A stretch of 64,000 nucleotides of DNA from Squalus acanthias (Eukaryota), in NCBI GenBank assembly GCA_030390025.1, contig JASTWF010000171.1, positions 310,001-374,000 of the forward strand. Reading direction: 5' to 3'. The translations under genes and the position numbers were made by a program. Under the pieces are notes generated by a model that saw only the letters and a list, made by a program, of their open reading frames with translations, was not told the origin of the DNA and did not search any database. This document shows, in pieces, positions 17,338 through 64,000 of this stretch. Each line of letters opens with the position of its first letter. Positions within the stretch are counted from its first letter, which is position 1.

Positions 17338-17386
17338 ATGATTGGACTGATAGTGCTGGCCCTTCTGTGTGGAGGGGTCTCTGCAG
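17338..17386 (+). CDS. MHC class I exon 1 (leader)
   Basis: MIGLIVLALLCGGVSA then CAG|GTGAGT. Confidence 0.9.
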
Positions 17387-41344: not shown

Positions 41345-43483
41345 TATAGTCTGTTGTTCAAGGTGTGGCTGGTGGAGGAATCCTCTGAATTGAAAATCCC
41401 AATAGTGGAAGCTCTCGGCTCCTGCTCCTTGCCCATCTCCTGTTGCCCAAGGACACTCTGGAGGAAGAGCTGCCCAGGTTAGTGTCAGGCATCCTGTCAC
41501 TACAAGAAATAACCAGGGCATGTTTCCATCAGAGTGTCTGTGCTGGGTACTGGATGTTGCCACAGAGATGAGGTATCTAGGACTAAAAACACAGATGGAC
41601 AATCTGCTTAAAAGTCTCCACTAGTAGATTAGTGTTTTGGTGGGGTCGAACATGCTGTGGAGAAACGCAATAAGATCCTTTGCTGTTTCAGAGTTCTGGT
41701 CCCAGTTTACGCAGACTCATTAGTTGAATTTCTCCGAGCCCAGTTAGAGAACGCTGACCAGTAAATGAGAGTACGAACACTCAGTCTACTGAGGCACCTC
41801 ATCATATCGGTCTCCTCACACTGAGAGGAAGGCGGCTCAGATTGTGGCCACCATAAAACCAGTGCTCCTGGACAAGAGCAGCAATCAGGAGAAGAAGCTA
41901 ATTGCCTGTGTAATATATGCCATTGCCCAGCAAGTTTACCTTGAGCCAGAGGGAGGAAAGGCAATGGTGGAATTCATCATCCAACAGGGTGCTGCATCTG
42001 TTGATTCAGCGACCCTGGTACCACCCAATCATCAGCCAGACCGGGTAATAGATGGAGAATTAATTACAGTATGAAACGGGGATGTGCGCGTGCAACGGGA
42101 TGTGTGTGATCACAACTGCAGTGAAGCTGGAGGATGTCCTTTACCATTCTTATTGGAGTTTGTCACTATGACCCTGTACACCAAGGCTTTAACAGCAATC
42201 TGTAATTGCTCAGCACATCTTGGGAAAAAGAAACTGCCAGCCGGCAGTGAAAGGTTTTCCCTTGCTCACAATGAAGATGCCAATCTCCCTAAAGGCCAGG
42301 CACTGCTGACCCGGCTCCTCATCGTCTCTCGTTGCCCAGATCAGGGAGGAAGCCGAGGAGCTGCGGCACTGAGACTGATGCAAGTCCGAAGTCTCACTCT
42401 CCACCCAGCAACAGTGAGGGGGGTGGGAAGAGGAGCTCCCATTATTGGTTGACCAATTACTGGAGAATTCAGGGGAGTCTCTGGCCCAATGGGAACGGGA
42501 GGAGAAATTATTGCTGGTCTTGTCCGGAACTCTGGATACCATTGATGACGAGCAATGGACATGCCAGCTCGCTGATGAAATATGGAAACAGATCGACACC
42601 AACCATCTTTCCCCACAGGAGAAGGGCTTTCTCTATAAATCTCTTAGTGCGGGTCTGACTGTACCAAGAACTTAAAGGAGGAGCTTCACCAAATAGTACT
42701 GAGCGTGCAGCAGTGAGTGCAGAGAGAGGGAGCAGCCCTCGCCATTGGTTTCTGTGCCATGACACACGTTGATGATACCCTTGGTAGCCTGGAGGAGTCC
42801 GTTAACTCCAATAGATTTAAGAAAACTAAAAGTTTCTTCAATATTTTTAGGGTCAGAAACGGGGAGCTGCGGACATACATGCAGGACTTTATTGAAGCCA
42901 AGCCACCAGAGCTGCTGCAGAGCCCTGTTCGACAGTTAGCCATGGACGCCTGCACGCATCTCGTACAACTACACACTGAATCAAACCAAGCTGATACCTG
43001 CCAATTGATCCAAACCTGCCTAACCAGTACTTTCAGCCTTGGTACCTTCAGAACTGGTCAATGACAAAGACACAAATGGTAACACAAAAGAGACGGCAAC
43101 ACTTTACAACCAAACCATGAGTTCCCTGCAAAAACTTCTGAAGGAAATATTATTTCAGGATCTGTCGCCTCAAGGATTTGAGGCCATTTTCAATCAGTTA
43201 TAAGAGTGGATCATTTCAACAAAAGCTCATGGAAGAGAGCGAGCCATGGGCATGACCTTTGAGCTTCTCCAAGTAAAGTTTCAGAAGCTCGATGTTAGCA
43301 ATGTAGTGCCTGGAAATAATACGGGGACACTGACTGGATGACTGACTCCGATCTGTGCAGACCCATCGCTTCCTGTTCGACAGATGGCCCTCGACACTTT
43401 GTACATCATCCTGTCCATTCAGTTATCGTATGAAGGCAGCAGTCTGGATCAACAAAAGGAGCAGTTCATAGGGGGGAGAGAGG
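41345..43483 (+). pseudogene. MROH1: Intronless, disrupted maestro HEAT-like repeat (MROH1-like) pseudogene
   Basis: Collinear motifs recognised from MROH1: NKILCCFRVL..LVEFL, RVRTLSLLRHLI, YLEPEGGKAMVEFIIQQ, PFLLEFVT, RGAAALRL, EKGFLYK, REGAALAIGFCA. Multiple stops and frameshifts; runs into the N gap. Confidence 0.8.
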
Positions 43484-44367
43484 NNNNNNNNNNNNNNNNN
43501 NNNNNNNNNNNNNNNNNNNNNNNNNNNNNNNNNNNNNNNNNNNNNNNNNNNNNNNNNNNNNNNNNNNNNNNNNNNNNNNNNNNNNNNNNNNNNNNNNNNN
43601 NNNNNNNNNNNNNNNNNNNNNNNNNNNNNNNNNNNNNNNNNNNNNNNNNNNNNNNNNNNNNNNNNNNNNNNNNNNNNNNNNNNNNNNNNNNNNNNNNNNN
43701 NNNNNNNNNNNNNNNNNNNNNNNNNNNNNNNNNNNNNNNNNNNNNNNNNNNNNNNNNNNNNNNNNNNNNNNNNNNNNNNNNNNNNNNNNNNNNNNNNNNN
43801 NNNNNNNNNNNNNNNNNNNNNNNNNNNNNNNNNNNNNNNNNNNNNNNNNNNNNNNNNNNNNNNNNNNNNNNNNNNNNNNNNNNNNNNNNNNNNNNNNNNN
43901 NNNNNNNNNNNNNNNNNNNNNNNNNNNNNNNNNNNNNNNNNNNNNNNNNNNNNNNNNNNNNNNNNNNNNNNNNNNNNNNNNNNCCGAGCAGGTAACTCCC
44001 CTCACCCGAGCAGGTAACTCCTCTCACCCGAGCAGGTAACTCCACTCACCCGAGCGGGTAACTCCTCTCACCCGAGCAGGTAACTCCTCTCACCCGAGTG
44101 GGTAACTCTACTCACCCAAGCAGGTAACTCCACTCACCCGAGCAGGTAACTCCACTCACCCGAGCAAGTAACTCCTCTCACCCGAGCAGGTAACTCCTCT
44201 CACACAAGCAGGTAACTCCTCTCACCCGAGCAGGTAACGCCTCTCACCTGAGCGGGTAACTCCTCTCACCCGAGCAGGTAACTCCACTCACCCGAAACTC
44301 CACTCACCCGAAACTCCACTCACCCGAGCGGGTAACTCCAATCACCTGAGCAGGTAACTCCACTAAC

Positions 44368-44682
44368 CTGAGCAGGTAACTCCAGCGTCCTTGCTGTGTG
44401 TGCAGTTATTGACACCCGATGGGTTGGCAGTGCACTGATCGAGGGCAGGTTCTGTCCCAAGACACCTCACATCATCCAACCAGATGTTCCCAGTCCCCTC
44501 TCCATAGTAGGCGCCTCTTGTTTCTGACAGGGCCGTCCCACAGTTCAACAGTCTGCAGACCACACTCGCTGCATTTAAGTCCCAGCCATCGTCACAGATG
44601 GTCCCCCAGATGGATGATCGAAAGACCTCAACTCTCCCGGTGCACATGTTGGTCCCGTTCACCAGCCGTACGGGCACTGGAC
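44368..44682 (-). CDS. SRCR exon A
   Basis: 315 bp, 8 Cys, TATTCCAG acceptor, GTTAGT donor. Confidence 0.9.
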
Positions 44683-47600
44683 CTGGAATAGAGACGTGAA
44701 CACGGTTAATCTGGTCTGGGATTACCTGGACTTTCACTGGAGTCATCGCTGGACATTTAAGCACAGGTGCAAGGATCCTCCCAATATGTAGTCTGATCCC
44801 ACCTGCACGAAATCTCCCGTAACACCAGCTTTGGGAATGTCCTGCAACCCCCATCCAGGACTAAGGCTGCCGCCACCTGGTACTGAGGCACAAGTCCCTC
44901 GTCCAGCCAGTCTCCCTCGCATAAGAACATAAGAAATAGGAGCAGGAGTCGGCCATTTGGCCCTTCGAGCCTGCTCCGCCATTCAATAAGATCATGGCTG
45001 ATCTTCCACCTCATCTCCACTTTCCTGAACTATCCCCATATCCCTAGATTTCCTTAATATCCAAAAATCTATCGATCTCTGTCTTGAATATACTCAACTA
45101 CTGAGCCTCCACAGCCCTCTGGGGTAGAGAATTCCAAAGATTCACCACCCTAAGTAGTTCATAGCCTATCTAATAGAGGGAGGTTCTGATTGGTGGGTAG
45201 CTGTTGAGTGTTTCTTGTTAAGTTTATTTCTGCTAAATTACCTCCAAAGTCTGGTAAATAGAGGCATGGCAGGGCAGCTCAGTCCCGTGATTTGCACATC
45301 CTGTGGCATGTGGGAAATCCTGGATGCTTCTTGCGACCTGAACGACCACGTGTGCAGGAAGTGTCACCAACTGCAGCAACTCGAGCTCTGGGTTTCAGAG
45401 CTTGAGCGGCAGCTGGAGTCACTTCAGTGCATCCGCGAGGCTGAGAAATACTAGGAAAGCACGTTTTTAGAAGTGGTCACCCCACAGCCTCAGAATGTGC
45501 AGGCAGAGAGGGAATGGGTGACCACCAAACAGAGAAGGAGGACCAGGCAGGTAGGGCAGGAATCCCCGGAGTGCATCTCGCTCGCTAACCGGTTCACAGA
45601 TCTGGAAACTGGTGGGGGTGATGGCTCCTCTGGGGAGAGCAGCCAGAGCCAAGGCCACGGCACCACGGAGCTGCACAGGGGGGGAGGAAGAAGAGTGGAA
45701 GAGCAATAATGATAGGGGATTCGTTGGTTAGGGGAACAGATGGGCGTTTCTGTGGACGCAGACGTGACTCCAGGATGGTATGTTGCCTCCCTGGTGCCAG
45801 GGTCAAGGATGTCACTGAGCGACTGCAGGAAACTCTGAGGGGGGAGGGTGAACAGCCAGAGGTCGTTGTCCATATTGGTACCAATGACATAGACAGAAAG
45901 AGGGATGAGGTCCTGCAGGCAGACAAGAGGGAGTTAGGAAAGTGATTAAAAAGCAGGACCTCAAAGGTAGTAATCTCCAGATTACTCCCGGTGCCACATG
46001 CTAGTGAGTACAGGAGTAGAAGGATAGACAGATAAATACGTGACTGGAGAGATGATGCAGGAGGGAGGGCTTTAGATTCCTGAGGCATTGGGACCATTTC
46101 TGGGGAAGGTGGGACCTGTACAAGCCGGACGGGTTACACCTCAACAGAGCCGGGACCAATATTCTAACGGGGAAGTTTGCTAGTGCTGTTGGGGAGGGTT
46201 TAAACTAGCTTGGCAGGGGGTTGGGCACCAGCATATAGGAGTAGAAAAGAGGAATAAGGTGCATAAAAGAGTGAGTGTGTTGGATAGTACTAGAGAGGTA
46301 GTATTAGAGGCGGTAGGTGTACCATATTAGATAGGAGCAGACTAAGAAAGACTACAAAAACTTCAAAAATGGGTTTAGAATGCATGTACGTAAACGCACA
46401 AAGTGTGGTGAATAAGCTTGGTGAGCTACAAGCACAATTAGCCGTGTGGCAATATGATGTCGTGGCAATAACAGAAACGTGGCTTAAAAACGATGAGGAC
46501 TGGGCACTTAATATTCCAGGGTACAAGGTGTTCAGAAAAAATAGGGAAGGAAAAAAGGGAGGTGGGGTGGCAATGCTGATTAAGGAAGACATTGTAGTGT
46601 TGGAAAGGGAGGATGTTCTTGAGGGGACAAGGACAGAATCCATTTGGTCAGAGTTGAGGAGCAAAAAGGGTATGATCACGCTATTGGGGGTATTCTACAG
46701 GCCTCCAAATAGTGAGAGGGAGGTTGATGAGCAAATCTGCAGGGAAATTGCAGAGATATGCAAGAGCTATAGGGCCAGAAATTCGGCTCCCTGGCTTCCC
46801 GCGGGTGCAAGGATCGCGCGCGCACCTACCTACCGCGCCTGCCGTTGACCTCTGGGCCCACGGGGACTTCGGCTCCTGGGCCTCCTCCAACTGCCGGCGC
46901 GCAGTGCTTGTGTATCCCAGGGGCGTCGTTAGTGCGATGCGTCCCCTGGGATCACGTGGGCCATGGAGAGCCAATGGCAGCAGACCATCTTTCATTCATA
47001 GATTTGAGAGGAAGACCTGTCAAATCTATGAATACAGATTGGCCCCAAAACATCCTTAAAACTACAAATAAATTTAAAAAAAACATCACATTTTTAAAAT
47101 AACTATAAATTACATTAATTAACTATTTTAAACAAAAATTTTAATTTTTGAAAAAATTAATTACATTTTTTAACGGGACTAAAACTAAACTTACCTTTCT
47201 TTAAAGTAATTAAAAAAGATAAATCTGTGAAAAAAATGTTTACATTTTAATAAAATCAACACTTACCTTGTTAAAAGAAGGCCTTGCGCATCCTTTTCTA
47301 AAGTGTATCTTCTCCGTGCTTACCTTCACGGAGGAACCTGTAAAAAAAACCCGAAGCGCGAGGCGAACGCGCTGGTCCTCTAGCGTGCGCGTTCGACCTC
47401 TGAACCCCTTTCCTCAGGGGAACGGAAGTGCTGGTTTCCCGCGCATGCACAGTGCATGCAAGAAACCGGCACTTTCGTTCCATCCACGGGTGAGTACACA
47501 GTGCATACTCACCCGACAACAGCCGAATTTCTGCCCCATAGAGTGGTGATATTGGGGGACTTTAATTACCCAAATATCGATTCGGATAATGCTAGGGTAA

Positions 47601-50600
47601 AGGGAAAGGAGGGGGAGGAATTTCTGAATTGTGTTCAGGAGAATTTCCTTGAACAATATGTTCTTGGCCCAACTAGGAAGGAGGCATTGCTGGATCTGGT
47701 GCTGGGGAATGAGGTGGGCCAGGTCGACCAAGTGTCTGTGGGAGAACACTTGGGTACGAGTGATTATCGTATCATAAGATTTAGATTAGCAATGGAGAGG
47801 AGCAAGGAACAATCTAGACTGGAACTTCTAAACTGGAAAAGGGCTAACTTCAATGGGATGCGAAAGGATCTAGCCAGAGTAAAATGGAACCAAAGACTGA
47901 CAGGAAAAACTGTAACGGAACAATGGGAGATCTTTAAGGAGGAGATGTTCCAAGTACAGGCTAGGTACATTCCAACAAGATGGAAGGGTGAGGGAACCAA
48001 AACAAGGGCTCCTTGGATGATGAGGGGAGATAGAGAAGATGATGAAACAAAAAAAGAGGGTGTATGATGAATATCTGCCAAAGAAGAGAAGAAGATAAAA
48101 GGGAACCCAAAAATCTTCTTCCGGCATGTAAACAGTAAGCGGGTAGTAAGAGGTGGGGTGGGCTCTATTAGGGACAAAGAAGGTGATATATGCTTAGAGG
48201 CGCAGGGCAAGGCTAGAATACTCAATGAGTACTTTCTATTACTAAGGAGGTGGATGCTGACAAAATATCAGTAGAAGTGGAAAAGGTAGAAGCAATGGAA
48301 GGGGTGAAAATTGATAGACAGGATGTACTAGAAAGGCTGGGTATGCTTAGAGTGGATAAGTCGCCTGGTCCAGATGGCTTGCATCCCAGGTTGCTAAGGG
48401 AATTGCGGGAGGAGATAGCGGATTGGAAAGTGGCAAGTGTGACACCATTGTTCAAGAAAGGGTGTAAGGACAATCCTAGTAACTACAGTTTAACATCAGT
48501 GGTGGGTAAAGTTTTAGAATCAATAATCAAGGAAAAAATTAACGGGCACTTGAAGAGGTTTAAGCTAATTAAGGAGAGCCAACACGGATTTGTAAAAAGC
48601 ATATCGTGTTTGACTAATCTAATTGAATTTTTTGATGAAGTAACAGGGAGGATTGATTAAGGGAATGCAATGGATGTTGTCTACATGGATTTTCAGAAGG
48701 CGTTTGACAAAGTACCACATAGAAGGCTGGTTAACAAAATTGAGACTCATGGAATAGGTGGGTTAGTGGCAGCTTGGATAAGGAATTGGCTTAAGGACAG
48801 AAAACAGCGAGTTGTGGTAAATGGCTGTTTTTCAGACTGGAGGATGGTAGACAGTGGCGTTCCCCAAGGGTCAGTGCTGGGGCCACTGCTTTTTTGATCT
48901 ATACATAAATGACCTGGATATTGGAATACAGAGTAGAATTTCTAAATTTGCTGATGTCACCAAACTTGGGGGTGTGGCAAACAGTGATGATGATACCAAT
49001 CGACTGCAACAGGACATAGAAAGGCTAGCAGAATGGGCAGACAAGTGGCAGATGGAATTTAATACAGAGAAGTGTGAGATGATGCATTTTGGCAGAAGGA
49101 ACAGGGAGAGGCAATATACACTTAATGGCACAGTTTTAAAGGGTGTGCAGGGACAGAGAGACCTGGGAATTAATGTGCAGAGGTCCCTGAAAGTGGCGGG
49201 ACGTATTGAGAGAGTGGTTAGCAAAGCATATGGGATCTTGGGCTTCATAAATAGAGGTATTGAGTACAAAAGTAGAGAAGTTATGCTGAACCTTTATAAC
49301 ATGTTGGTTAGGCCACAACTGGGGTATTGCGTCCAGTTCTGGTCACCACACTTTAGGAAGGATGTGAAGGCACTTGAGAGGGTGCAGAGGAGATTTACCA
49401 GAATGGTTCCGGGGATGGGGGATCTTAGCTACAAGGACAGGTTGGAGAAGCTGGATTTGTTTTCATTAGAGCAAAGGAGATTGCGGGGTGATTTGATAGA
49501 GGTGTACAAGATTATGACGGGTTTGGATAGGCTAGACGGGAAAGGCTGTTCCCACTAGTTGATGGTAAAAGGACTAGGGGACACAGATTTAAGGTTTAGG
49601 GCAAGAGATACAGGGGGGATGTGAGGAAAAAAAATTTTACGCAGCGAGTGGTGAGGACCTGGAACTCGCTGCTGACGGAAGTGGTGGAAGCAGAGACACT
49701 CAATGTTTTCAAGGGGAGACTGGATAGGCACTTGAGGAAAATAAACTTGCAGGGCTACGGGGATAGAGCAGGGGAAATGGGACTGACTCGATTGCTCTAC
49801 AGAGAGACGGCGTGGACTCGATGGGCCGAGTGGCCTCCTTCTGTGCCGTTATGACTCTATGACTCTGAATGAAGACATTTCTCCTCAACTCAGTTCTAAA
49901 TGGCCATCCCCTTATTCTGAGACTGTGACCCCTGGTTTTAGACTCCCCAGCCAGGGGAAACATCCTCCCTGCATCTACCCTGTCAAGCCCTGTAAGAATT
50001 TTGTATGTTTCAATGAGATCACCTCTCATTCTTCTAAACTCCAGAGAATATAGGCCTAGTCTACTCAATCTCTCCTCATAGGACAATCCCCCCATCCCAG
50101 GAACCAGTCTGCTGAGTCTTCGTTGCACTCCCTCTATGGCAAGTATATCCTTCCTTAGGTAAGGAGACCAAAACTGTGTACAATGCTCCAGGTGTGGTCT
50201 CACCAGGGCCCGATATAATTGCAGTAAGACCTCTTTACTCTTATACTCAAATCCTCTTGTAATAAAGGCCAACATACCATTTGCTTTCCTAATTGCTTGC
50301 TGTACCTGCATATTAACTTTCAGTGATTCATGTACAAGGACAACCAGGTCTCTCTGAACACCAACATTTCCCAATCTCTCACATTTAAAAAATACACTGA
50401 TTTTTTGTTTTTCCTACCAAAGTGGATAACTTCACACTTCTCCACGTTATATTCCATTTGCCGTGTTCTTGCCCACTCACTTAGCCTGTCTATATCCCCT
50501 TGAAGCCTCCTTGCATCCTCCCAGGAGACTCACTCCTCCACATGGACCAGGTGAGAATAGCTCAAACAGCACAGGCCTGGGATGGAGCCCGGGTCTTTCC

Positions 50601-53600
50601 TGCTCTGTGTAAGGGGCTCAGTATAACACCTGGTGCGACATTTATCCACAGAATAATTGGAAATCCTCCCTAAACCTTCACACTAATACCTCTCACTCAC
50701 TATCTCCGATCATAGAAGCAGGGCGGCAGTAAGTTAGCTGCCAAGACTGCCGCGCGCTCCTGAGCAGGCAACTCACCCGAGCGGCTAACACCTCTCGCCC
50801 GAGCGGGTAACTCCTCTCACCCGAGCGGGTAACTCCTCTCACCCGAGCGGGTAACTCCTCTCACCCGAGCGGGTAACTCCGCTCACCCGAGCGGGTAACT
50901 CCGCTCACCCGAGCGGGTAACTCCGCTCACCCGAGCGGGTAACTCCGCTCACCCGAGCGGGTAACTCCGCTCACCCGAGCGGGTAACTCCTCTCACCGGA
51001 GCGGATAACTCCACTCACCCGAGCGGGTAACTCCTCTCACCCGAGCGGGTAACTCCACTCACCCGAGCGGGTGACTCCTCTCACCCGAGCGGATAACTCC
51101 ACTCACCCGAGCGGGTAACTCCTCTCACCCGAGCGGGTAACTCCTCTCACCCGAGCGGGTAACTCCGCTCACCCGAGCAGGTAACTCCTCTCACCCGAGC
51201 AGGTAACTCCTCTCACCCGAGCGGGTAACTCCACTCACCCGAGCGGGTAACTCCACTCACCCGAGCGAGTAACTCCTCTCACCCGAGCAGGTAACTCCAC
51301 TCACCCGAGCGGGTAACTCCTCTCACCCGAGCGGGTAAATCCGCTCACCCGAGCGGGTAACTCCACTCACCCGAGCGGGTAACTCCGCTCACCCGAGCGG
51401 GTAACTCCTCTCACCCGAGCGGGTAACTCCACTCACCCGAGCAGGTAACTCCAGCGTCCTTTCTGTGTGAGCAGTTATTGACACCTGATGGGTTGGCAGT
51501 GCACTGATCGAGGGCAGGCTCTGTCCCAAGACACTTCACATCATCCAACCAGATGTCCGCAGTCCCCTCTCCATAGTAGGCGGGTCTTGTTGCTGACAGG
51601 GCCGTCCCACAGTTCAACAGTCTGCAGACCACACTCGCTGCGTTTAGATTCCAGCCATCGTCACAGACGGTCCCCCAGATGGATTTACGAAAGACCTCAA
51701 CTCTCCCGGAGCACATGTTGGTCCCGTTCACCAGCCGTACAGGCACCGGACCTGGAATAGAGACGGGAACACGGTTAATCTGGACTGGGATTACCTGGAC
51801 TTTCACTGGAGTCATCGCTGGACATTTGGGCCGAGGATGTTAGGCTCCTCCCAACAGTAGTCAGCACAGTTTGAGTTTATGAACACAGGAACAGTAGGAG
51901 GCCATTCAGCCCCTCGAGCCTGATCCGCCATTCAATTAGATTATGGCTGATCTGCATCTTAACTCCTTTTACCAGTCTTGGTTCCATAATCCTTAATACC
52001 CTTGCCTAAGAAAAATCTATCAATCTCAGTTTTCAAATTTCCAATTGACCCCCAGCCTTTTCGGGAGCAAGTTCCAGATTTCCACTACCCTTTGTGTGAA
52101 AAAGTGCTTCTTCACATCACCCTTGAACGGCCTCGCTCTAATTGTTAGGTTATGGCCCCCCTGTTCTGGACTCTCCCATTGAGGAACTAGTTTCTCTCTA
52201 TTTATCCTATCAAATCCTTTAATCATCTCAAACACTTCGATTAGATCACCCCTTAATCTTCTGTGTTCAACGAAATACAGGCCTTGGATATACAATCTGT
52301 CTCCATAATTTAACCCTTTTAGACCCGGCATCATCTGGTGAATCTGCACTGCACTCCCTCCAAATCCAATTTATGTTACTGGACAAGTAATCCAGTAGCC
52401 CGAACTAGTAATCTAGATGCCTGGGCTCGTCACTCAGAGGCCTGGGCTAGTCATCCAGAGACCTGGGCTGGTCACTCAGTGGCCTCAGATAACACGAGGT
52501 AACTCCACTCATCCGAGCAGGGAACTCCTCTCACCCGAGCGGGTAACTCCTCTCACCCGAACGGGTAACTCCGCTCACCCGAGCAGGTAACTCCGCTCAC
52601 CCGAGCGGGTAACTCCTCTCACCCGAGCAGGTAACTCCTCTAACCCGAGCGGGTATCTCCGCTCACCCGAGCGGGTAACTCCTCTCACCCGAGCGGGTAA
52701 CTCCACTCACCCGAGCGGGTAACTCCACTCACCCGAGCGGGTAACTCCGCTCACCCGAGCAGGTAACTCCACTCACCCGAGCGGGTAACTCCGCTCACCC
52801 TAGCAGGGAACTGCACTCACCCGAGCGGGTAACTCCGCTCACCCTAGCAGGGAACTCCACTCACCTGAGCAGGTAACTCCGGCGTCCTTGCTGTGTGTAC
52901 AGGTATTGACACCCGATGGGTTTGCAGAGCACTGATCGAGGGCAGGCTCTGTCCCGTTACACCTCACATCATCCAACCAGATGTCCCCAGTCCCCTTTCC
53001 ATAGTAGGCGCCTCCTGTAGCTGACAGGGCCGTCCCACAGTTCAACAGTCTGCAGACCACACTCGCTGCGTTTAGATCCCAACCATTGTCACAGACGGTC
53101 CCCCAGACGGATTTACGAAAGACCTCAACTCTCCCGGAGCACATGTTGGTCCCGTTCACCAGCTGTACGGGCACCGGACCTGGAATAGAGACGGGAACAC
53201 GGTTAATCTGGTCTGGGATTACCTGGACTTTCACTGGAGTCATCGCTGGACATTTGGTGCTATCTGTCAGGCTCCTCCCAATATCCGGACTGATCCCACC
53301 TGCACTAACTCTCCCGTAACACCAATTTTGGGAATGTCCTGCAGCCCCCATCCGGGACTAACTGAGGCACGAACAACTCATTGAGTCAGACTCCCTCCCA
53401 GGAGACCCACTCCTCCAACAGACCCACGTGAGAAAAGCTCACACAGCACAGGCCGGAGAAGGAGCCTAGGCCTTTCATCAACAACAACTTGTATTTATAT
53501 AGTGCCTTTAACGTAGTAAAACGTCTCAAGGTGCTGCAGCACAGGAGTATTTTAAGACAAAAAATTTGACACTGAGCCACATAAGGAGAAATTAGGGCAG

Positions 53601-56600
53601 GTGACCAAAAGCTTGGTCAAAGAGGTAGGTTTTAAGGAGCATCTTAAAGGAGGAGAGAGAGGCGGAGAGGTTTAGGCAGAGAATTCCAGAGCTTAGGGCC
53701 GAGGCAACAGAAGGCACGGCCACCAAAGGTTGAGCGATTATAATCAGCGATGCTCAAGAGAGCATAATTACAGGAGTACAGATATCTCGGTGGGTTGTGG
53801 GGCTGAAGGAGATTACAGAGATAGGGAGGGGCGAGGTCATGGAGGGATTTGAAAACAAGGACGAGAATTTTGAAATCGAATCGTTGCTTAACCGGAAGCC
53901 AATGTAGGTCAGCGAGCACAGGGGAGATGGGCGAATGGGACTTGGTGCGAGTTAGGACATGGGCAGCCGATTTTTGGATGACTTCAAGTTTACATAGGGT
54001 AGAATGTGGGAAGCCAGCCAGGAGTGCATTGGAATAGTCAAGTCTAGAGGTAACAAAGGTATGGATGAGGAAGTCCTGCTCTGTGTATGGGGCTCAGTAT
54101 CACACACTGGGTGAGAACAGCTCACACAGCACGGGCTGGGGATGGAACCATGGCCTTTCCTGCTGCGTGTGTCACGGGCTCCGCACCACACCAGCTGGGA
54201 CATTTCCCCACAGAACAATTGGAGATTCTCCCTTAACCTTCACACTAATACACCTCACTCTCCCTCTCTGAACATAGCAGCAAGGCGGCAGGAAAGAAGC
54301 TGCCAATACTGCCGCGTTCACCCGAGCGGGTAACTCCTCTCACCCGAACAGGTAACTCCGCTCACCGGAACAGGTAACTCCCCTCACCCGAGCAGGTAAC
54401 TCCGCTCACCGGAACAGGTAACTCCCCTCACCCGAGCAGGTAACTCCGCTCACCCGAGCAGGTAACTCCTCTAACCCGAGCAGGTAACTCCTCTCACCCG
54501 AGCAGGTAACTCCTCTCACCCGAGCAGGTAACTCCGCTCACCCGAGCAGGTAACTCCTCTCACCCGAGCAGGTAACTCCCCTCGCCCGAGCAGGTAACTC
54601 CACTCACCCGAGCAGGTAACTCCCCTCGCCCGAGCAGGTAACTCCACTCACCCGAGCAGGTAACTCCTCTCACCGGAGCGGGTAACTCCACTCACCCGAG
54701 CAGGTAACTCCTCTCACCCGAGCGGGTAACTCCACTCACCCGAGCAGGTAACTCCTCTCACCCGAGCGGGTAACTCCACTCACCCGAGCGGGTAACTCCT
54801 CTGACCCGAGCGGGTAACTCCTCTCACCCGAGCGGGTAACTCCACTCACCCGAGCGGGTAACTCCACTCACCCGAGCAGGTAACTCCGCTCACCCGAGCG
54901 AGTAACTCCACTCACCCGAGCAGGTAACTCCCCTCACCCGAGCGGGTAACTCCACTCACCTGAGCAGGTAACTCCCCTCACCCGAGCAGGTAACTCCGCT
55001 CACCCGAGCAGGTAACTCCGCTCACCCGAGCAGGTAACTCCGCTCACCCGAGCAGGTAACTCCCCTCACCCGAGCAGGTGACTCCTCTCACCCGAGCAGG
55101 TAACTCCTCTAACCCGAGCAGGTAACTCCTCTCACCCGAGCTGGTAACTCCACTCACCCGAGCTGGTAACTACGCTCACCCAAGCGGGTAACTCCACTCA
55201 CCCGAGCAGGTAACTCCACTCACCCAAGCGGGTAACTCCACTCACCCGAGCGGGTGACTCCGCTCACCCGAGCAGGTAACTCCGCCCACCCGAGCAGGTG
55301 ACTCCACTCACCCGAGCAGGTAACTCCACTCACCCAAGCGGGTAACTCCACTCACTCGAGCGGGTGACTCCGCTCACCCGAGCAGGTAACTCCGCCCACC
55401 CGAGCAGGTGACTCCACTCACCCGAGCAGGTAACTCCACTCACCCAAGCGGGTAACTCCACTCACTCGAGCGGGTGACTCCGCTCACCCGAGCAGGTAAC
55501 TCCGCCCACCCGAGCAGGTGACTCCACTCACCCGAGCAGGTAACTCCAGCGTCCTTGCTGTGTGTGCAGTTATTGACACCTGTTGAGTTGGCAGAGCACT
55601 GATCGAGGGCAGGCTCTGTCCCAAGACACCTCACATCATCCAACCAGATGTCCCCAGTCCCCTCTCCATAGTAGGCGCCTCCTGTTGTTGACAGGACCGT
55701 CCCACAGTTCAACAGTCTGCAGACCACACTCGCTGCGTTTACATCCCAGCCATCGTCGCAGACGGTCCCCCAGATGGATGATCGATAGACCTCAACTCTC
55801 CCGGAGCACATGTTGGTCCCGTTCACCAGCCGTACGGGCACTGGACCTGGAATAGAGATGGGAACACAGTTAATCTGGTCGGGGAATACCTGGACTTTCA
55901 CTGGAGTCATCGGCTGGACATTTGGGCCGAGGATGTCAAGCTCCTCCCAATCGTGGTCAGCACAGATTGGGTTTAAGAACATAGGAACAGGAGGAGGCCA
56001 TTCAGTCACTCGAGCCTGATCTGCCATTCAATTAGATTATGGCTGATAAACTGAGTCAACCCTCCTTGGTTCTGTAATGCTTAATACTCCTGCCTAACAA
56101 AAATCTATCAATTTAAGTTTTCAAATTTCCAATTGACCCCCAGCTTTTTGGGGGAGCGAGATCCAGATTTCCACAACTCTTTGTGTGAAAAAGTGCTTCC
56201 TGACATCACCCTTGAACGGCCTCGCTAGGTTATGCCCCCCTGTTCTGGACTCTCCCATTGAGGAACTAGTTTCTCTCTATCTATCCTATCAAATCCTTTA
56301 ATCATCTCAAACACTTCGATTAGATCATCGCTTAATCTCCTGTGTTCAACAATATACAAGCCTTGGATATACAATCTGTCTCCATAATTTAACCCTTTTC
56401 GACCCGGTATCATCTGGTGAATCTGCGCTGCACTCCCTCCAAATCCAATAAATGTAACTGGACAAGTAATCCAATAGGCAGAACTAGTAATCTAGAGACC
56501 TGGGCTCGTCACCCAGAGACCTGGACTAATCACCCAGAGACCTGGGCTAGTCACCCAGAGACCTGGGCTAGTCACCCAGAGACATGGGCTAGTCACCCAG

Positions 56601-59600
56601 AGACCTGGGCTAGTCACTCAGAGACCTGGGCTAATCACCCAGAGACCTGGGCTAGTCACCCAGAGACCTGGGCTAGTCACCCAGAGACCTGGACTAGTCA
56701 CCCAGAGACCTGGGCTAGTCACCCAGAGACCTGGACTAGTCACCCAGAGACCTGGACTAGTCACCCAGAGACCTGGACTAGTCACCCAGAGACCTGGACT
56801 AGTCACCCAGAGACCTGGGCTAGTCACCCAGAGACATGGACTAGTCACCCAGAGACCTGGACTAGTCACCCAGAGACCTGGACTAGTCACCCAGAGACCT
56901 GGGCTAGTCACCCAGAGACCTGGACTAGTCACCCAGAGACCTGGGCTAATCACCCAGAGACCTGGACGAGTCACCCAGAGACCTGGACTAGTCACCCAGA
57001 GACCTGGACTAGTCACCCAGAGACCTGGGCTAGTCACCCAGAGACGTGGGCTAGTCACCCAGAGACCTGGACTAGTCACCCAGAGACCTGGGCTAATCAC
57101 CCAGAGACCTGGACTAGTCACCCAGAGACCTGGGCTAATCACCCAGAGACCTGGGCTAGTCACCCAGAGACCTGGGCTAGTCACTCAGAGACCTGGACTA
57201 GTCACCCAGAGACCTGGACTAGTCACCCAGAGACCTGGACTAGTCACCCAGAGACCTGGGCTAGTCACCCAGAGACGTGGGCTCATCACCCAGAGGCCTG
57301 GGCCACTCACCCGAGCGGGTAACTCCAATCACCCGAGCGGGTAACTCCACTCACCCGAGCGGGTAAATCCACTCACCCGAGCGGGTAACTCCTCTCACCC
57401 GAGCAGGTAACTCCACTCACCCGAGCGGGTAATTCCTCTCACCCGAGCGGGTAACTCCTCTCACCCGAGCAGGTAACTCCCCTCGCCCGAGCAGGTAACT
57501 CCACTCACCCGAGCAGGTAACTCCCCTCGCCCGAGCAGGTAACTCCACTCACCCGAGCAGGTAACTCCTCTCACCGGAGCGGGTAACTCCACTCACCCGA
57601 GCAGGTAACTCCTCTCACCCGAGCGGGTAACTCCACTCACCCGAGCAGGTAACTCCTCTCACCCGAGCGGGTAACTCCACTCACCCGAGCGGGTAACTCC
57701 TCTGACCCGAGCGGGTAACTCCTCTCACCCGAGCGGGTAACTCCACTCACCCGAGCGGGTAACTCCACTCACCCGAGCGGGTAACTCCTCTCACCCGAGC
57801 GGGTAACTCCACTCACCCGAGCGGGTAACTCCACTCACCCGAGCGGGTGACTCCACTCACCCGAGCGGGTAACTCCACTCACCCGAGCAGGTAACTCCAC
57901 TCACCCGAGCGGGTAACTCCACTCACCCGAGCGGGTAACTCCACTCACCCGTGCGGGTAACTCCTCTCACCCGAGCGGGTAACTCCGCTCACCCGAGCAG
58001 GTAACTCCTCTCACCTGAGCAGGTAACTCCAGCGTCCTTGCTGTGTGAGCAGTTATTGACCCCCAATGGGTTGGCAGTGCACTGATCGAGGGCAGGCTCT
58101 GTCCCAAGACACTTCACATCATCCAACCAGATGTTCCCAGTCCCCTGTCCATAGTAGTCGCCTCCTGTTGCTGACAGGGCCGTCCCACAGTTCAACAGTC
58201 TGCAGACCACACTCGCTCCATTTAGATTCCAGCCATTGTCGCTGACGGTCCCCCAGACGGATTTACGTTTAACCTCAACTCTCCCGGAGCACATGTTGGT
58301 GCCGTTCACCAGCCGTACGGGCACCGGACCTGGAATAGAGACGTGAACACGGTTAATCTGGTCTGGGATTACCTGGACAATCACTGGAGTCATCGCTAGA
58401 CATTTGGGCCTAGGTGTGAGGCTGCTCCCAATATCCAGACTTATCCCACCTGCACTAATTCTCCCGTAACACCAGCTTTGGGAATGTCCTGCAGCCCCAT
58501 CCGGGACTAACTCTGCCACAACCTGGTATTGAGGCACGAACACCTCATTGAGCCAGAATCCCTCCCAGGAGACACCCTCCTCCAAGAGACCCAGGTGAGA
58601 ATAGCTCACATAGCACAGGCCGGGGAATGAGCCTGGGCCTTTCCTGCTCTGTGTATGGGGCTCAGTATCCCACACTGGGTGAGAACAGCTCACACAGCCC
58701 GAGCTGGGGATGGAACCATGGCCTTGTACAGGGCCTTGGTGAGCCCACACCTGGAGTACTGTGTGCAGTTTTGGTCTCCTTACCTCGGAAAGGATATACT
58801 TGCCATAGAGGGAGTGCAGCAAAGGTTCACCAGACTGATTCCTGGGATGGCAGGACTGTCGTATGAGGAGAGACTGGGTCGACTCGGCCTGTATTCACTA
58901 GAGTTTAGAAGAATGAGGGGATCTAATTGAAATGTATAAAATTCTGACAGGGCTAGACAGACTGGATGCAGGGAGGATGTTTCCCCTGGCTGGGAGGTCT
59001 AGAACGAGGGGTCACAGTCTCAGAATACGGGGTAGGACATTTAGGACTGAGATGAGGAGAAATTTCTTCACTCAGAGGGTGGTGAACCTGTGGAATTCTC
59101 TACCACAGAAGGCTGTGGAGGCCAAGTCACTGAATATATTTAAGAAGGAGATAGATAGATTTCTAGACACAAAAGGCATCAAAGGGTATGGGGAGAGAGC
59201 AGGAATATGGTATTGAGATAGAGGATCAGCCATGATCATATTGAATGGAGGAGCAGGTTCGAAGGGCCGAATGGCCGACTCCTGCTCCTATTTTTCTATG
59301 TTTCTATGTTATCTGCTGCGTGTGTGACGGGCTCTGTACCACACCAGCTGGGACATTTCCCCACAGAACAATTGGAGATCCTCCCTTTACCTTCACACTA
59401 ACACACCTCACTCTCACTCTCTGAACATAGCAACAAGGCAGCAGTAAAGAAGCTGCCAACACTGCCGCGTTTCTCCGAGCAGGTAACTCCACTCACCCGA
59501 GCGGGTAACTCCTCTCACCCGAGCGGGTAACTGCACTCACCCGAGCGGGTAACTCCACTCACCCGAGCGGGTAACTCCATTCACCGGAGCAGGTAACACC

Positions 59601-62600
59601 TCTCACCCGAGCGGGTAACACCTCTCACCCGAGCGGGTAACACCTCTCACCCGAGCAGGTAACTCCAGCGTCCTTGCTGTGTGTGCAGTTATTGACACCC
59701 GATGGGTTGGCAGTGCACTGATCGAGGGCAGGTTCTGTCCCGTCACACCTGACATCATCCAACCAGATGGCCCCAGTCCCCTCTCCATAGTAGGCGCCTC
59801 CTGTTGCTGACAGGGCCGTCCCACAGTTCAACAGTCTGCAGACCACGCTCGCTGCATTTAGATTCCAGTCATTGTTGCAGATGGTCCCCCAGACAGATTT
59901 ACGATAGACCTCAACTCTCCCGGAGCACATGTTGGTCCCGTTCACCAGCCGTACGGGCACCGGACCTGGAATAGAGACATGAACATGGTTAATCTGGTCT
60001 GGGATTACCTGGACTTTCACTGGAGACATCGCTGGACATTTGAGCATAGGTGCCAGGATCCTCCCAATATGTAATCTGATCCCACCTGCACTAAAGCTCC
60101 AGTAACACCAGCTTTGGGAATGTCCTGCAACCCCCATCGGGGCTAATGCTGCCACCACCTGGTACTGAGGCACAAGCCCCTCGTCCAGCCAGACTCCCTC
60201 CCAGGAGACTCACTGCTCAAAGAGACCCAGGTGACAATAGCGCACACAGCACAGGCCAGGGATGGAGTCTGGGCCTTTCCTGCTCTGTGTGAGGGGCTCA
60301 GTGCCACACCAGATGAGACACTAATCCACAGAACAAATGGAACCCCTCCCTTTACCTTCACACTACTACCCCTCACTCACTATCACCGATCATAGTAGCA
60401 GGGTGGCAGTAAGGTAGCTGCCAAGACTGCTGCACTCTTCTGAGCAGGTAACACACCCGAACAGGGAACTCCACTCACCCGAGCGGGCAACTCCTCTCAC
60501 CCGAGCAGGTAACTCCTCTCACCCGAACAGGTAACTCCTCTCACCCGAACAGGTAACTCCACTCACCTGAGCAGGTAACTCCGGCGTCCTTGCTGTGTGT
60601 GCAGTTATTGACAACCAATGGGTTTGCAGAGCACTGATCGAGGGCAGGCTCTGTCCCAAGACACCTCACATCATCCAACCAGATGGCCCCAGTCCCCTGT
60701 CCATAATAGGCGCCTCCTGTTGCTGACAGGGCCTCCCCACAGTTCAACAGTCTGCAGACCACGCTCGCTGCATTTAGATCCCAACCATTGTCGCAGATGG
60801 TCCCCCAGATGGATTTACGTTTGACCTCAACTCTCCCGGAGCACATGTTGGTCCCGTTCACCAGCCGTACGGGCACCGGACCTGGAATAGAGACGGGAAC
60901 GCGGTTAATCTGGTCTGGGATTACCTGGACTTTCAATGGAGTCAACGCTGGATATTTGGGCCGAGGTGTGAGGCTGCTCCCAATATCCAGACTTATACCA
61001 CCTGCACTAATTCTCCCGTAACACCAATTTTGGGAATGCCCTGCAGCCCCATCCGGGACTAACGCTGCCACAACCTGGTATTGAGGCTCAAACACCTCAT
61101 CGAGCCTGAATCCCTCCCAGGAGACACCCTCCTCCAAGAGACCCAGGTGAGAATAGCTCACATAGCACAGGCCGGGGAATGAGCCTGGGCGTTTCCTGCT
61201 CTGTGTATGGGGCTCAGTATCACACACTGGGTGAGAACAGCTCACACAGCCCGAGCTGGGGATGGAACCATGGCCTTTCCTGCTGCGTGTGTCACGGGCT
61301 CTGTACCACACCAGCTGGGACATTTCCCCACAGAACAATTGGAGATCCTCCCTTAACCTTCACACTAATACACCTCACTCTCCCTCTCTGAACATAGCAG
61401 CAAGGCGGCAGGAAAGAAGCTGCCAACACTGCCGCGTTCACCCGAGCGGGTAACTCCTCTCACCCGAGCAGGTAACTCCGCTCACCCGAGCAGGTAACTC
61501 CGCTCACCTGAACAGGTAACTCCTCTCACCCGAGCGGGTAACTCCACTCACCCGAGCGGGTAACTCCGCTCACCCGAGCAGGTAACTCCGCTCACCCGAA
61601 CAGGTAACTCCTCTCACCCGAGCAGGTAACTCCACTCACCCGAGCGGGTAACTCCACTCACCCGAGCAGGTAACTCCACTCACCCGAGCTGGTAACTCCA
61701 CTCACCCGAGCGGGTAACTCCTCTCACCCGAGCGGGTAACTCCGCTCACTCGAGCGGGTAACTCCGCTCACCCGAGCGGGTAACTCCCCTCACCCGAGCG
61801 GGTAACTCCCCTCACTCGAGCGGGTAACTCCTCTCACACGAGCGGGTAACTCCACTCACCCGAACGGGTAACTCCTCTCACCCGAACGGGTAACTCCTCT
61901 CACCCGAGCGGGTAACTCCTCTCACCCGAGCGGGTAACTCCACTCACCCGAGCGGGTAACTCCACTCACCCGAGCGGGTAACTCCTCTCACCCGAGCGGG
62001 TAACTCCGCTCACCCGAGCGGGTAACTCCGCTCACCCGAGCGGGTAACTCCTCTCACCCGAGCGGGTAACTCCGCTCACCCGAGCGGGTAACTCCGCTCA
62101 CCCGAGCGGGTAACTCCGCTCACCCGAGCGGGTAACTCCGCTCACCCGAGCGGGTAACTCCTCTCACCCGAGCGGGTAACTCCTCTCACCCGAGCGGATA
62201 ACTCCACTCACCCGTGCGGGTAACTCCTCTCACCCGAGCGGGTAACTCCTCTCACCTGAGCAGGTAACTCCAGCGTCCTTGCTGTGTGTGCAGTTATTGA
62301 CACCCGATGGGTTGGCAGTGCACTGATCGAGGGCAGGCTCTGTCCCAAGACACCTCACATCATCCAACCAGATGTCCCCAGTCCCCTCTCCATAGTAGGC
62401 GCCTCCTGTTGCTGACAGGGCCGTCCCACAGTTCAACAGTCTGCAGACCACACTCGCTGCGTTTACATCCCAGCCATCATCGCAGACGGTCCCCCAGACA
62501 GATTTACGATAGACCTCAACTCTCCCGGAGCACATGTTGGTCCCGTTCACCAGCCGTACGGGCACTGGACCTGGAATAGAGACGGGAACACGGTTAATCT

Positions 62601-64000
62601 GGTCTGGGATTACCTGGATTTTCACTGGAGACATCGCTGGACATTTGAGCACAGGTGCCAGGATCCTCCCAATATGTAATCTGATCCCACCTGCACTAAA
62701 GCTCCAGTAACACCAGCTTTGGGAATGTCCTGCAACCCCCATCGGGGACTAACGCTGCCACCACCTGGTACTGAGGCACAAGCCCCTCGTCCAGCCAGAA
62801 TCCCTCCCAGGAGACTCACTCCTCCAAGAGACCCAGGTGACAATAGCGCACAAAGCACAGGCCACGGATGGAGCCTGGGCCTTTCCTGCTCTGTGTGAGG
62901 GGCTCAGTGCCACACCAGATGAGACACTAATCCACAGAACAATTGGAACCCCTCCCTTTACCTTCACACAAACACCCCTCACTCACTATCTCCGATCATA
63001 GTAGCAGGGTGGCAGTAAGGTAGCTGCCAAGACTGCCGTGCACTCCTGAGCAGGTTACTCACCCGAGCAGGTAACTCCGCTCACCCGAGCAGGTAACTCC
63101 ACTCACCCGAGCGGGTAACTCTGCTCACCCGATCGGGTAACTCCTCTCACCCGAGCAGGTAACTCCTCTCACCCGAGCAGGTAACTCTGCTCACCCGAGC
63201 AGGTAACCCCTCTCACCCGAGCAGGTAACTCCGCTAACCCGAGCAGGTAACCCCTCTCACCCGAGCAGGTAACTCCGCTCACCCGAGCAGGTACTCCCTC
63301 TCACCCGAGCAGGTAACTCCTCTCACCCGAGCAGGTAACTCCTCTCACCCGAGCAGGTAACTCCTCTCACCCGAGCGGGTAACTCCTCTCACCCGAGCAG
63401 GTAACTCCTCTCACCCGAGCAGGTAACTCCTCTCACCCGAGCTGTTAACTCCTCTCACCTGAGCTGGTAACTCCACTCACCCGAGCAGGTAACTCCACTC
63501 ACCCGAGCGGGTAACTCCACTCACCCGAGCGGGTAACTCCTCTCACCCGAGCGGGTAACTCCTCTCACCCGAGCGGGTAACTCCACTCACCCGAGCGGGT
63601 AACTCCTCTCACCCGAGCGGGTAACTCCACTCACCCGAGCGGGTAACTCCACTCACCCGAGCGGGTAACTCCGCTCACCCGAGCAGGTAACTCCACTCAC
63701 CCGAGCGGGTAACTCCGCTCACCCTAGCAGGGAACTGCACTCACCCGAGCGGGTAACTCCGCTCACCCTAGCAGGGAACTCCACTCACCTGAGCAGGTAA
63801 CTCCGGCGTCCTTGCTGTGTGTACAGGTATTGACACCCGATGGGTTTGCAGAGCACTGATCGAGGGCAGGCTCTGTCCCGTTACACCTCACATCATCCAA
63901 CCAGATGTCCCCAGTCCCCTTTCCATAGTAGGCGCCTCCTGTAGCTGACAGGGCCGTCCCACAGTTCAACAGTCTGCAGACCACACTCGCTGCGTTTAGA
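44368..64000 (-). CDS. Multi-domain group-B SRCR gene (DMBT1/CD163/WC1-like); at least 9 single-domain exons, both gene ends not visible
   Basis: Eight complete 315-bp phase-1 exons plus one partial, each VRLVNG..C.GRVEV....WGT.CD..W....A.VVCR.L.CG...IWLDDV.C.G.E..L.QC......NC.H..DAGVTCS. Confidence 0.92.
45151..49866 (+). mobile_element. Near full-length decayed CR1 LINE
   Basis: ORF1 zinc finger (CTSCGMW..HVCRKC) and esterase; ORF2 APE and RT with stops and frameshifts; (ATGACTCT)n tail. Confidence 0.92.
46772..47537. mobile_element. PIF/Harbinger-like MITE, 766 bp
   Basis: 17-bp TIRs (16/17 match) GGGCCAGAAATTCGGCT / AGCCGAATTTCTGCCCC and 3-bp TSD ATA. Removal restores CR1 CKSY|RVVILGDFN. 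Confidence 0.9.
50760..51436 (-). repeat. 22-bp exon-end/splice-donor array; same family at 43984-44367, 52495-52864, 54318-55531, 57305-58014, 59474-59650, 60440-60566, 61438-62255, 63047-63788
   Basis: Minus-strand unit GTGAG[T/A/C]GGAGTTACC[C/T]GCTCGG equals the donor plus the last 16 nt of the SRCR exon. Confidence 0.97.
51437..51751 (-). CDS. SRCR exon B
   Basis: 315 bp, 8 Cys, AG/GT borders. Confidence 0.92.
51880..52368 (-). mobile_element. CR1 3' fragment (duplicated at ~55975-56448)
   Basis: HRRLRGDLIEVFEMIKGFDR in both copies at the same intron position. Confidence 0.85.
52865..53179 (-). CDS. SRCR exon C
   Basis: 315 bp, 8 Cys. Confidence 0.92.
53477..54073 (-). mobile_element. 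L2 LINE 3' fragment
   Basis: LADLHWLPVKQRFDFKILVLVFKSLHDLAPPYL and a (TTG)n tail. Confidence 0.88.
55532..55846 (-). CDS. SRCR exon D
   Basis: 315 bp, 8 Cys. Confidence 0.92.
56490..57305. repeat. 21-bp minisatellite AGAGACCTGG[G/A]CTAGTCACCC, about 38 units
   Basis: Direct reading; only a few diverged units at the paralogous site ~52400-52490. Confidence 0.95.
58015..58329 (-). CDS. SRCR exon E (second Cys replaced by Ser)
   Basis: 315 bp; WGTVSDNGW. Confidence 0.9.
58726..59310 (+). mobile_element. CR1 3' fragment
   Basis: LYRALVSPHLEYCVQFWSPY through (TTTCTATG)n tail; absent from the paralogous intron at ~61275. Confidence 0.92.
59651..59965 (-). CDS. SRCR exon F
   Basis: 315 bp, 8 Cys. 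Confidence 0.92.
60567..60881 (-). CDS. SRCR exon G
   Basis: 315 bp, 8 Cys. Confidence 0.92.
62256..62570 (-). CDS. SRCR exon H
   Basis: 315 bp, 8 Cys. Confidence 0.92.
63789..64000 (-). CDS. SRCR exon I (partial, cut by window end)
   Basis: Visible 212 bp read identical to exon C. Confidence 0.9.

Follow-up and report, generated by a model that had tools for sequence, protein, structure and literature searches.

Minisatellites spanning the splice donor behind nine SRCR exons of a tandem gene in Squalus acanthias

The window analysed here (the whole stretch of 64,000 nucleotides from Squalus acanthias) carries nine SRCR exons on the minus strand of positions 43984-64000 (Table 1). The exons were labelled A to I in transcript order, with exon A at the right end of the window, by which it is truncated. 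The eight full exons are each 315 nt long, in phase 1-1 and free of stops, and they have the features of group-B SRCR domains, with one exon per domain and eight cysteines in seven of the eight (exon E has seven). Both exons that were scanned, B and I, matched Pfam PF00530, and the pN/pS of the exons was 0.53 over 28 non-independent exon pairs. The best homologues were shark 'DMBT1-like' models from Pristiophorus (93%), Heptranchias (87%) and Heterodontus (87%), in which the domains are linked via one glycine, without SIDs. SIDs between the SRCR domains are likewise absent here, since the exons join directly in contigs and in models. DMBT1 is similar to this family in its tandem single-exon group-B SRCR domains and their copy-number turnover, and it has SIDs between the domains as well as CUB and ZP domains, as far as the available text of the two sources goes (PMC3100851, PMC4851238), whereas the domains of the shark family are joined directly by one glycine and the last part of its closest models is a short basic tail. 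No CUB or ZP Pfam domain is annotated in the closest shark models, the end of the gene lies outside the window or past the gap, and the C-terminal tail exon of the family had no match inside the window (best E 0.64). Because of the single-glycine joins and the absence of the defining SIDs, the gene is, judged by its sequence, a shark SRCR tandem gene and not DMBT1 proper.

Table 1. Positions of the features within the window. Exons and arrays with the same letter belong together; a slash marks the exon-intron boundary.
Feature	Position	Strand	Remarks
Signal-peptide exon, MHC class I-like gene	~17338-17386	+	
Alpha-2 exon, MHC class I-like gene	~30087-30360	+	Pfam MHC_I E=2e-20
C1-set exon, MHC class I-like gene	30477-30741	+	E=2.6e-17
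TM-like exon, MHC class I-like gene	~34753-34860	+	
N gap	43484-43983		500 N; interrupts array I
Array I	43984..44383	-	16 full units, two 16-nt deleted units; runs into N gap
SRCR exon I	44368..44682	-	donor CAG/GTTAGT; Pfam SRCR E=2.3e-32
Broken LINE-type insertions, H-I intron	44920..50520		endonuclease-like frame 46294-46845; RT-like frame 48851-49555 (match below Pfam cutoff)
Array H	50760..51452	-	31 units + terminal partial copy
SRCR exon H	51437..51751	-	donor CGG/GTGAGT
Array G	52507..52880	-	17 units
SRCR exon G	52865..53179	-	last 212 nt + first 9 array units identical to A
Array F	54316..55547	-	56 units; internal 5-unit higher-order repeat
SRCR exon F	55532..55846	-	donor CGG/GTGAGT
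Array E	57305..58030	-	33 units; 14-unit run 57459-57766 identical to 54558-54865 in F
SRCR exon E	58015..58329	-	7 Cys, second Cys replaced by Ser; donor CAG/GTGAGA
Array D	59469..59666	-	9 units
SRCR exon D	59651..59965	-	donor CGG/GTGAGA; spliced to next exon in one X3 contig
Array C	60440..60582	-	6 units + terminal partial copy
SRCR exon C	60567..60881	-	donor CAG/GTGAGT; spliced to next exon in X1 and X3 contigs
Array B	61436..62271	-	38 units
SRCR exon B	62256..62570	-	315 nt, phase 1-1, 8 Cys; donor CAG/GTGAGA; Pfam SRCR E=1.6e-32
Array A	63046..63804	-	34 units, first starting in exon; terminal partial copy ends CAG without GT
SRCR exon A	63789..64000	-	donor CAG/GTGAGT; 5' part beyond window

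The SRCR gene is neighboured by an MHC class I-like gene (window 17338-34860, plus strand), the alpha-1 exon of which was not located within the window. A second, independent donor-spanning repeat is found in this gene (30345-30419, plus strand), where a 25-mer composed of the alpha-2 exon end and GTGAGT is present in three copies; copies 2 and 3 have GC for GT, and read-through stops at once. A 62-mer repeated 6.7 times (17387-17808, plus strand) begins exactly at the first-intron donor of the same gene, its units starting with GTGAGT or GTGGGT and containing no exon bases. Very large minisatellites lie at 19146-28260, 12748-14625 and 31409-34690; TRF reported a 45-mer repeated 205 times (9.1 kb) and a 27-mer repeated 122 times (99% matches) in the introns of the MHC class I-like gene, and a 19-mer repeated 100 times upstream of it. 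The region is repeat-prone, as TRF repeats occupy 36% of the window and a donor repeat is found in the MHC class I-like gene too. An MROH2B-like HEAT-repeat coding stretch with frame breaks (42717-43480, plus strand, Pfam E=4.1e-20) is located to the left of the N gap.

It had originally been predicted that the end of every SRCR exon is reiterated behind it, together with its splice donor, as a 22-mer. The results of TRF confirmed this for each of the nine exons, with arrays of 6 to 56 copies at the predicted places. All 240 matches to the 22-mer motif in the window are on the minus strand, inside 43984-63804, and the 240 full units of the nine arrays include 231 downstream of the first copies. 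The unit is made of 16 exon nt and 6 intron nt, and the first copy spans the exon-intron boundary in 9/9 arrays. There are 70 distinct unit sequences, in patterns specific to each array, and the start of array F (55440-55547, minus strand) is a 5-unit higher-order repeat of about three rounds which includes a stop-free GTGGGC donor. Among the downstream units, 224 keep GT, five have GC and two have neither, in agreement with the claim of more than 200 GT donors in total, nearly all intact. The observation that the true donor is GTGAGA in three exons while GTGAGT copies lie downstream also holds, for exons B, D and E (the E, F and H of the original prediction, apparently labelled from left to right, correspond to E, D and B here). 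Exons B and E have CAG at positions -3 to -1, and a G is present at position -2 in 220 of the 231 downstream copies. The unit is a quasi-palindrome with a 6-bp stem over donor positions -2 to +4, and the array is predicted to fold strongly (z=-5.0). An unrelated 21-bp intronic minisatellite of 39 copies (56494..57312) abuts array E, and 3.4 copies of it are present behind array G (52415-52485).

Reading on from the exon into the array gave GE(W/R)xxxxG followed by a stop in seven of the nine exons. The predicted read-through to a TGA at the second donor thus stands for these seven and fails for exon F, where the second donor is GTGGGC and brings no stop, and for exon I, where the first donor is GTTAGT and a glycine is followed immediately by a stop. 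The further claim was that a stop is included in every later donor. Among the 209 GT donors that lie downstream in arrays A to H (array I has no next exon within the window and was left out of this count), 198 lead to a stop in the retained array and 10 to a stop in the next exon, so that 208 lead to a premature stop, and the sole donor which keeps the frame open is that at +66 of array F (CGA/GTGAGT). The stops at the later donors arise because TGA is part of GTGAG and because 22 is not divisible by 3. More generally, a repeated GTRA donor comes to a TGA or TAA in frame within three units unless the length of the unit is divisible by 3, and an in-frame stop arises in 70 of 90 combinations of unit length and phase, including all three phases for a unit of 22 bp. 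The stop is a matter of arithmetic and needs no selection, contrary to the idea of a built-in feature. Premature stops with later exon junctions downstream should trigger NMD rather than give short proteins, and since further junctions lie downstream of these stops, use of a later donor would be expected to end in NMD rather than in a truncated protein.

The conservation of GT in the 231 downstream units was compared with that of the 18 other non-polymorphic positions of the unit. The two GT positions showed 2 and 6 deviations, respectively (8/462), versus a mean of 5.8 per other position (Fisher p=0.42), and the outcome was similar when deviations were counted as array-by-allele events (p=0.40). 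Positions +1 to +5 held 19 of 73 events, versus an expected share of 0.25 (p=0.64), and 5 of 18 adjacent position pairs were as conserved as GT or more. None of these four tests of unit positions showed an excess of GT conservation, an outcome that the original prediction had named as one sign of a neutral by-product. Conservation of the alternative splice signal beyond its surroundings, by which an AS-NMD switch is recognised, was likewise not seen either for GT (p=0.42) or for +1 to +5 (p=0.64). The uniform intactness of the donors is what homogenisation gives.

There was no sign that the decoy donors are under selection, and it is the first unit that is constrained. The variable base of the Cys codon is a T in 9/9 first units versus 97/231 downstream units, and an A is located at -2 in 6/9 first donors versus 5/231 downstream donors, as well as in three terminal partial copies. 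A(-2) marks both the first donors and the terminal partial copies, which fits an ancestral state of the edges and suggests that both edges of the array keep the old A(-2) and that CGG spread inside. Alternatively, the enrichment of A(-2) in first donors could be due to selection for donor choice.

The predicted pairing of the donors with a consensus probe was best, or equal to the best, at the first donor in arrays A, C, G and H. In the other five arrays, 44 downstream donors are predicted to pair better than the first (9 in B, 3 in D, 18 in E, 1 in F and 13 in I); the strength of the sequence alone is therefore insufficient for choosing the first donor, and position is needed, as in F7 (see below). 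In the predicted structures, the second donor was less accessible than the first in 9/9 arrays, while the accessibility of the first donor was not significantly different from that of all downstream donors (p=0.12). Masking of the decoys by structure would thus be a minor factor only.

The use of the donors was studied on contigs of four runs (X1, X2, X3 and X9) aligned on positions 59313-61437, which cover exons C and D with the two shortest arrays. Eight of nine runs were presumed, by guess, to be RNA, and alignment was made at 85% likeness, so paralogues can enter. Exon-exon joins were found in five loose-end rows comprising 11 contigs, five from X1 and six from X3 (two organisms, two studies); these are loose ends of unitigs, not reads, and contigs cannot be counted as molecules. 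All 11 junction ends, among the 24 of 257 loose ends listed, use the first donor, with the exon end CAG or CGG running straight into GTCCGGTG. No later-donor junction was present among these 24 of 257, where NMD would deplete such products; no splice joint was found among the 15 of 32 joints listed, and no exon-exon join was found in X2 or X9 among the six loose ends listed for each. In 16 cartilaginous-fish gene models, which are not transcripts, 84 of 88 matched domain junctions have the single-G link. These data support predominant use of the first donor and are compatible with a small leak. The original prediction had offered tolerance of massed decoy donors as one of its two readings, and this is supported by the spliced contigs, in which, as far as this small and truncated data set goes, the first donor is used to the exclusion of others. 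Sequencing depth in the array bins was far below that of the exon bins in X1 to X3 and far above it in X9; this fits spliced RNA and was set aside as evidence, depth being no measure of expression. The 43-nt 'intron' before each acceptor (CAG/GTAATC) was considered as a linker exon and rejected, as contigs and models join the exon end directly to the acceptor.

Over two stretches of intron, of 166 and 113 nt, run X1 shows no difference from the window, and its organism is therefore the same or a very close species. Run X9 lacks the letter of the window at many intron sites and is for this reason probably from another species; its contigs cross from the intron tail into arrays C and D. The arrays are thus present in a genome about 88-90% alike in the introns, which means that they are not a recent accident and that absence from relatives, which the original prediction had named as another sign of a neutral by-product, does not hold, even if the model from the sevengill shark Heptranchias suggests only a seed.

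This Heptranchias model (P0244) ends with GVTCSGEWGYLLRSRR, which matches the first-donor read-through (GEWSYLL) followed by LLRSAR, the reading that the terminal partial copy gives in tails A and H. We infer from this one protein model a two-copy seed behind that Heptranchias exon. P0244 was the single protein that matched this signature among those compared, and a homologue search with a single domain gave no further read-through gene model. Three other models from Heptranchias and Mustelus (P0052, P0063 and P0243) have GEWS or GEWG inserts, suggesting introns that start with GTGAGTGG, and Heptranchias models also translate MTPVKVPVIPDQSNRVPVSIPG, an intron end that is conserved and homologous to what precedes the acceptors here.

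The flanking introns are 78-97% alike between cassettes, and homology blocks of 420-970 nt (86-95% identity) run from array through intron and exon to the next array, with three types of tail. Exon, array and intron are thereby shown to form one cassette that was copied in tandem, and since the arrays were copied with the cassette, the nine have one origin and are not independent. Array lengths vary from 6 to 56 units among the exons of this one assembly. Cassettes A and G share 212 exon bases and nine units without a difference (410 nt, 100%) and then have different units and tails. Arrays E and F have 14 identical units in common, including four rare ones, with exons that differ at 29/315 positions; the longest shared run of units in shuffles was seven (300 shuffles under each of two nulls). 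These tracts support exchanges inside the arrays, if the assembly is right. Such exchanges fit a turnover in domain number, misassembly being a possible alternative. The proposal that the arrays provide a recombination substrate is thus upheld as regards the place of the exchanges, and as a consequence of the arrays, with the same reservation about misassembly. Target size may suffice for it, because array sequence amounts to 5280 bp versus 2835 bp of exon.

The arrays had been thought to have no described equivalent, which is not the case: donor-spanning minisatellites are known in five human genes, F7, 6-16, CBS, LAMIN B2 and PDGF (PMC1557585). The closest likeness is to the 37-bp VNTR of F7 intron 7, the first unit of which lies over the exon-intron boundary with the donor repeated downstream. 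According to the available text of that report, only the most upstream F7 donor is used, 1 to 12 copies in minigenes are without effect, and downstream sites that had been raised to a consensus value of 91 stayed unused, only perfect sites being able to compete (PMC1557585). In the shark, the first donor is used at 11/11 of the junction ends listed (24 of 257 rows). In F7, a single intron holds 5-9 copies, with 4 exon bases in the unit (PMC1557585), whereas in the shark gene all nine introns have arrays, of 6-56 copies each, with 16 exon bases in the unit and near-consensus donors spaced 22 bp apart. In 6-16, CBS intron 13, LAMIN B2 and PDGF, 10-25 reiterated donors lie behind the authentic one, and the next two donors are used as well in 6-16 and CBS; unlike in the shark, multiplication by tandem exon duplication is not described in the available part of that source (PMC1557585). 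Repeats at exon-intron boundaries of human segmental duplications (PMC2812944) likewise vary among recent duplicates; as far as the text available goes, those occur between paralogous genes and alter gene structure, whereas the shark repeats occur among exons of one gene with no alteration seen. The best matches in the literature on shark minisatellites and splicing, and on SRCR and DMBT1 of cartilaginous fish, contained no description of the shark arrays, and our search found no literature on a UPF3A VNTR case. The shark arrays are a large case of a known oddity, multiplied by tandem exon duplication and, as far as seen, with splicing at the first donor.

We consider that the arrays are probably an intronic minisatellite that happens to span the donor and is tolerated since the first donor wins. 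A two-copy seed would have been created in an ancestral shark intron by a short duplication that placed a copy of the exon end behind GTGAGT, and the quasi-palindromic unit would have been expanded by slippage and unequal exchange, the palindrome being a plausible aid to slippage. Tandem copying of the exon-array-intron cassette then accounts for the nine arrays. Within the reach of the data, splicing takes the first donor and gives the conserved GVTCS-G-PVPVRL junction, and the choice of this donor may depend on its upstream position as in F7, on a U1 match that is usually equal or better and on the lower accessibility of the second donor. A leak to a later donor would result in an early stop and NMD, a sink that would exist without selection. 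The arrays, as the longest near-identical stretch common to all cassettes, would take part in the exchanges which reshuffle the SRCR domains as a side effect.

Selection might instead have kept the arrays as recombination substrates which speed up variation in SRCR domain number in an innate immune protein. The switch of flanks inside the array between A and G, the 14-unit tract of E and F, the tendency of homology blocks to run from array to array, the presence of arrays in a diverged genome and the high SRCR copy-number turnover reported for human DMBT1 (PMC4851238) all agree with such a role. We find it unlikely, however, since 5280 of the 8115 bp of exon plus array belong to the arrays, so that breakpoints would fall there by target size alone, since Callorhinchus and skates also have long SRCR runs in their gene models, and since one haplotype was analysed. 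A selected contingency device, in which array exchange drives SRCR gain and loss while a small leak, hidden by NMD and compounded over nine exons or more, ties protein dose to the length of the arrays and the number of domains, seems about as unlikely.

Still less probable is the length-tunable splicing switch of the original prediction, in which array length sets the share of later donors and thereby gives NMD or proteins ending after any domain. Premature stops behind 208 of 209 downstream donors, donors predicted to pair better than the first in 5/9 arrays and the finding that later donors are partly used in human 6-16 and CBS (PMC1557585) would suit such a switch, and NMD could hide later-donor products in contigs. 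This has to be set against the lack of excess GT conservation, the stops expected from arithmetic, the NMD (rather than truncated proteins) expected from stops followed by later junctions, the absence of later-donor junctions among the 24 of 257 rows listed, and a donor choice in F7 minigenes that remained flat over 1-12 copies (PMC1557585). Assembly artefacts, which would concern the copy numbers and the A/G and E/F tracts, are most improbable as a source of the arrays or shared tracts, since, although A and G show 100% identity along 410 nt and array I ends in a scaffold gap, there are 70 distinct units in array-specific patterns and the unit is present in independent runs, with X9 contigs running from the intron tail into arrays C and D.

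With the tolerated minisatellite as the preferred reading, the locus offers a natural panel for testing upstream-first donor choice outside mammals: nine near-identical exons, each followed by 5 to 55 decoys spaced 22 bp apart, some of them predicted to pair better with U1 than the first donor. Past exchange among the domain cassettes can also be read from the arrays. If the leak scaled with array length, repeat instability would be tied to how much of a pathogen-binding protein is made and to its size; nothing found points there.

The cassettes carry a short intron segment (60236-60306 and 61159-61229) that is at very high copy number in other runs and has many loose ends. Its summed depth was about 250,000 in X9 and in the thousands in X1 and X2, and it is probably the core of a SINE or another dispersed repeat.
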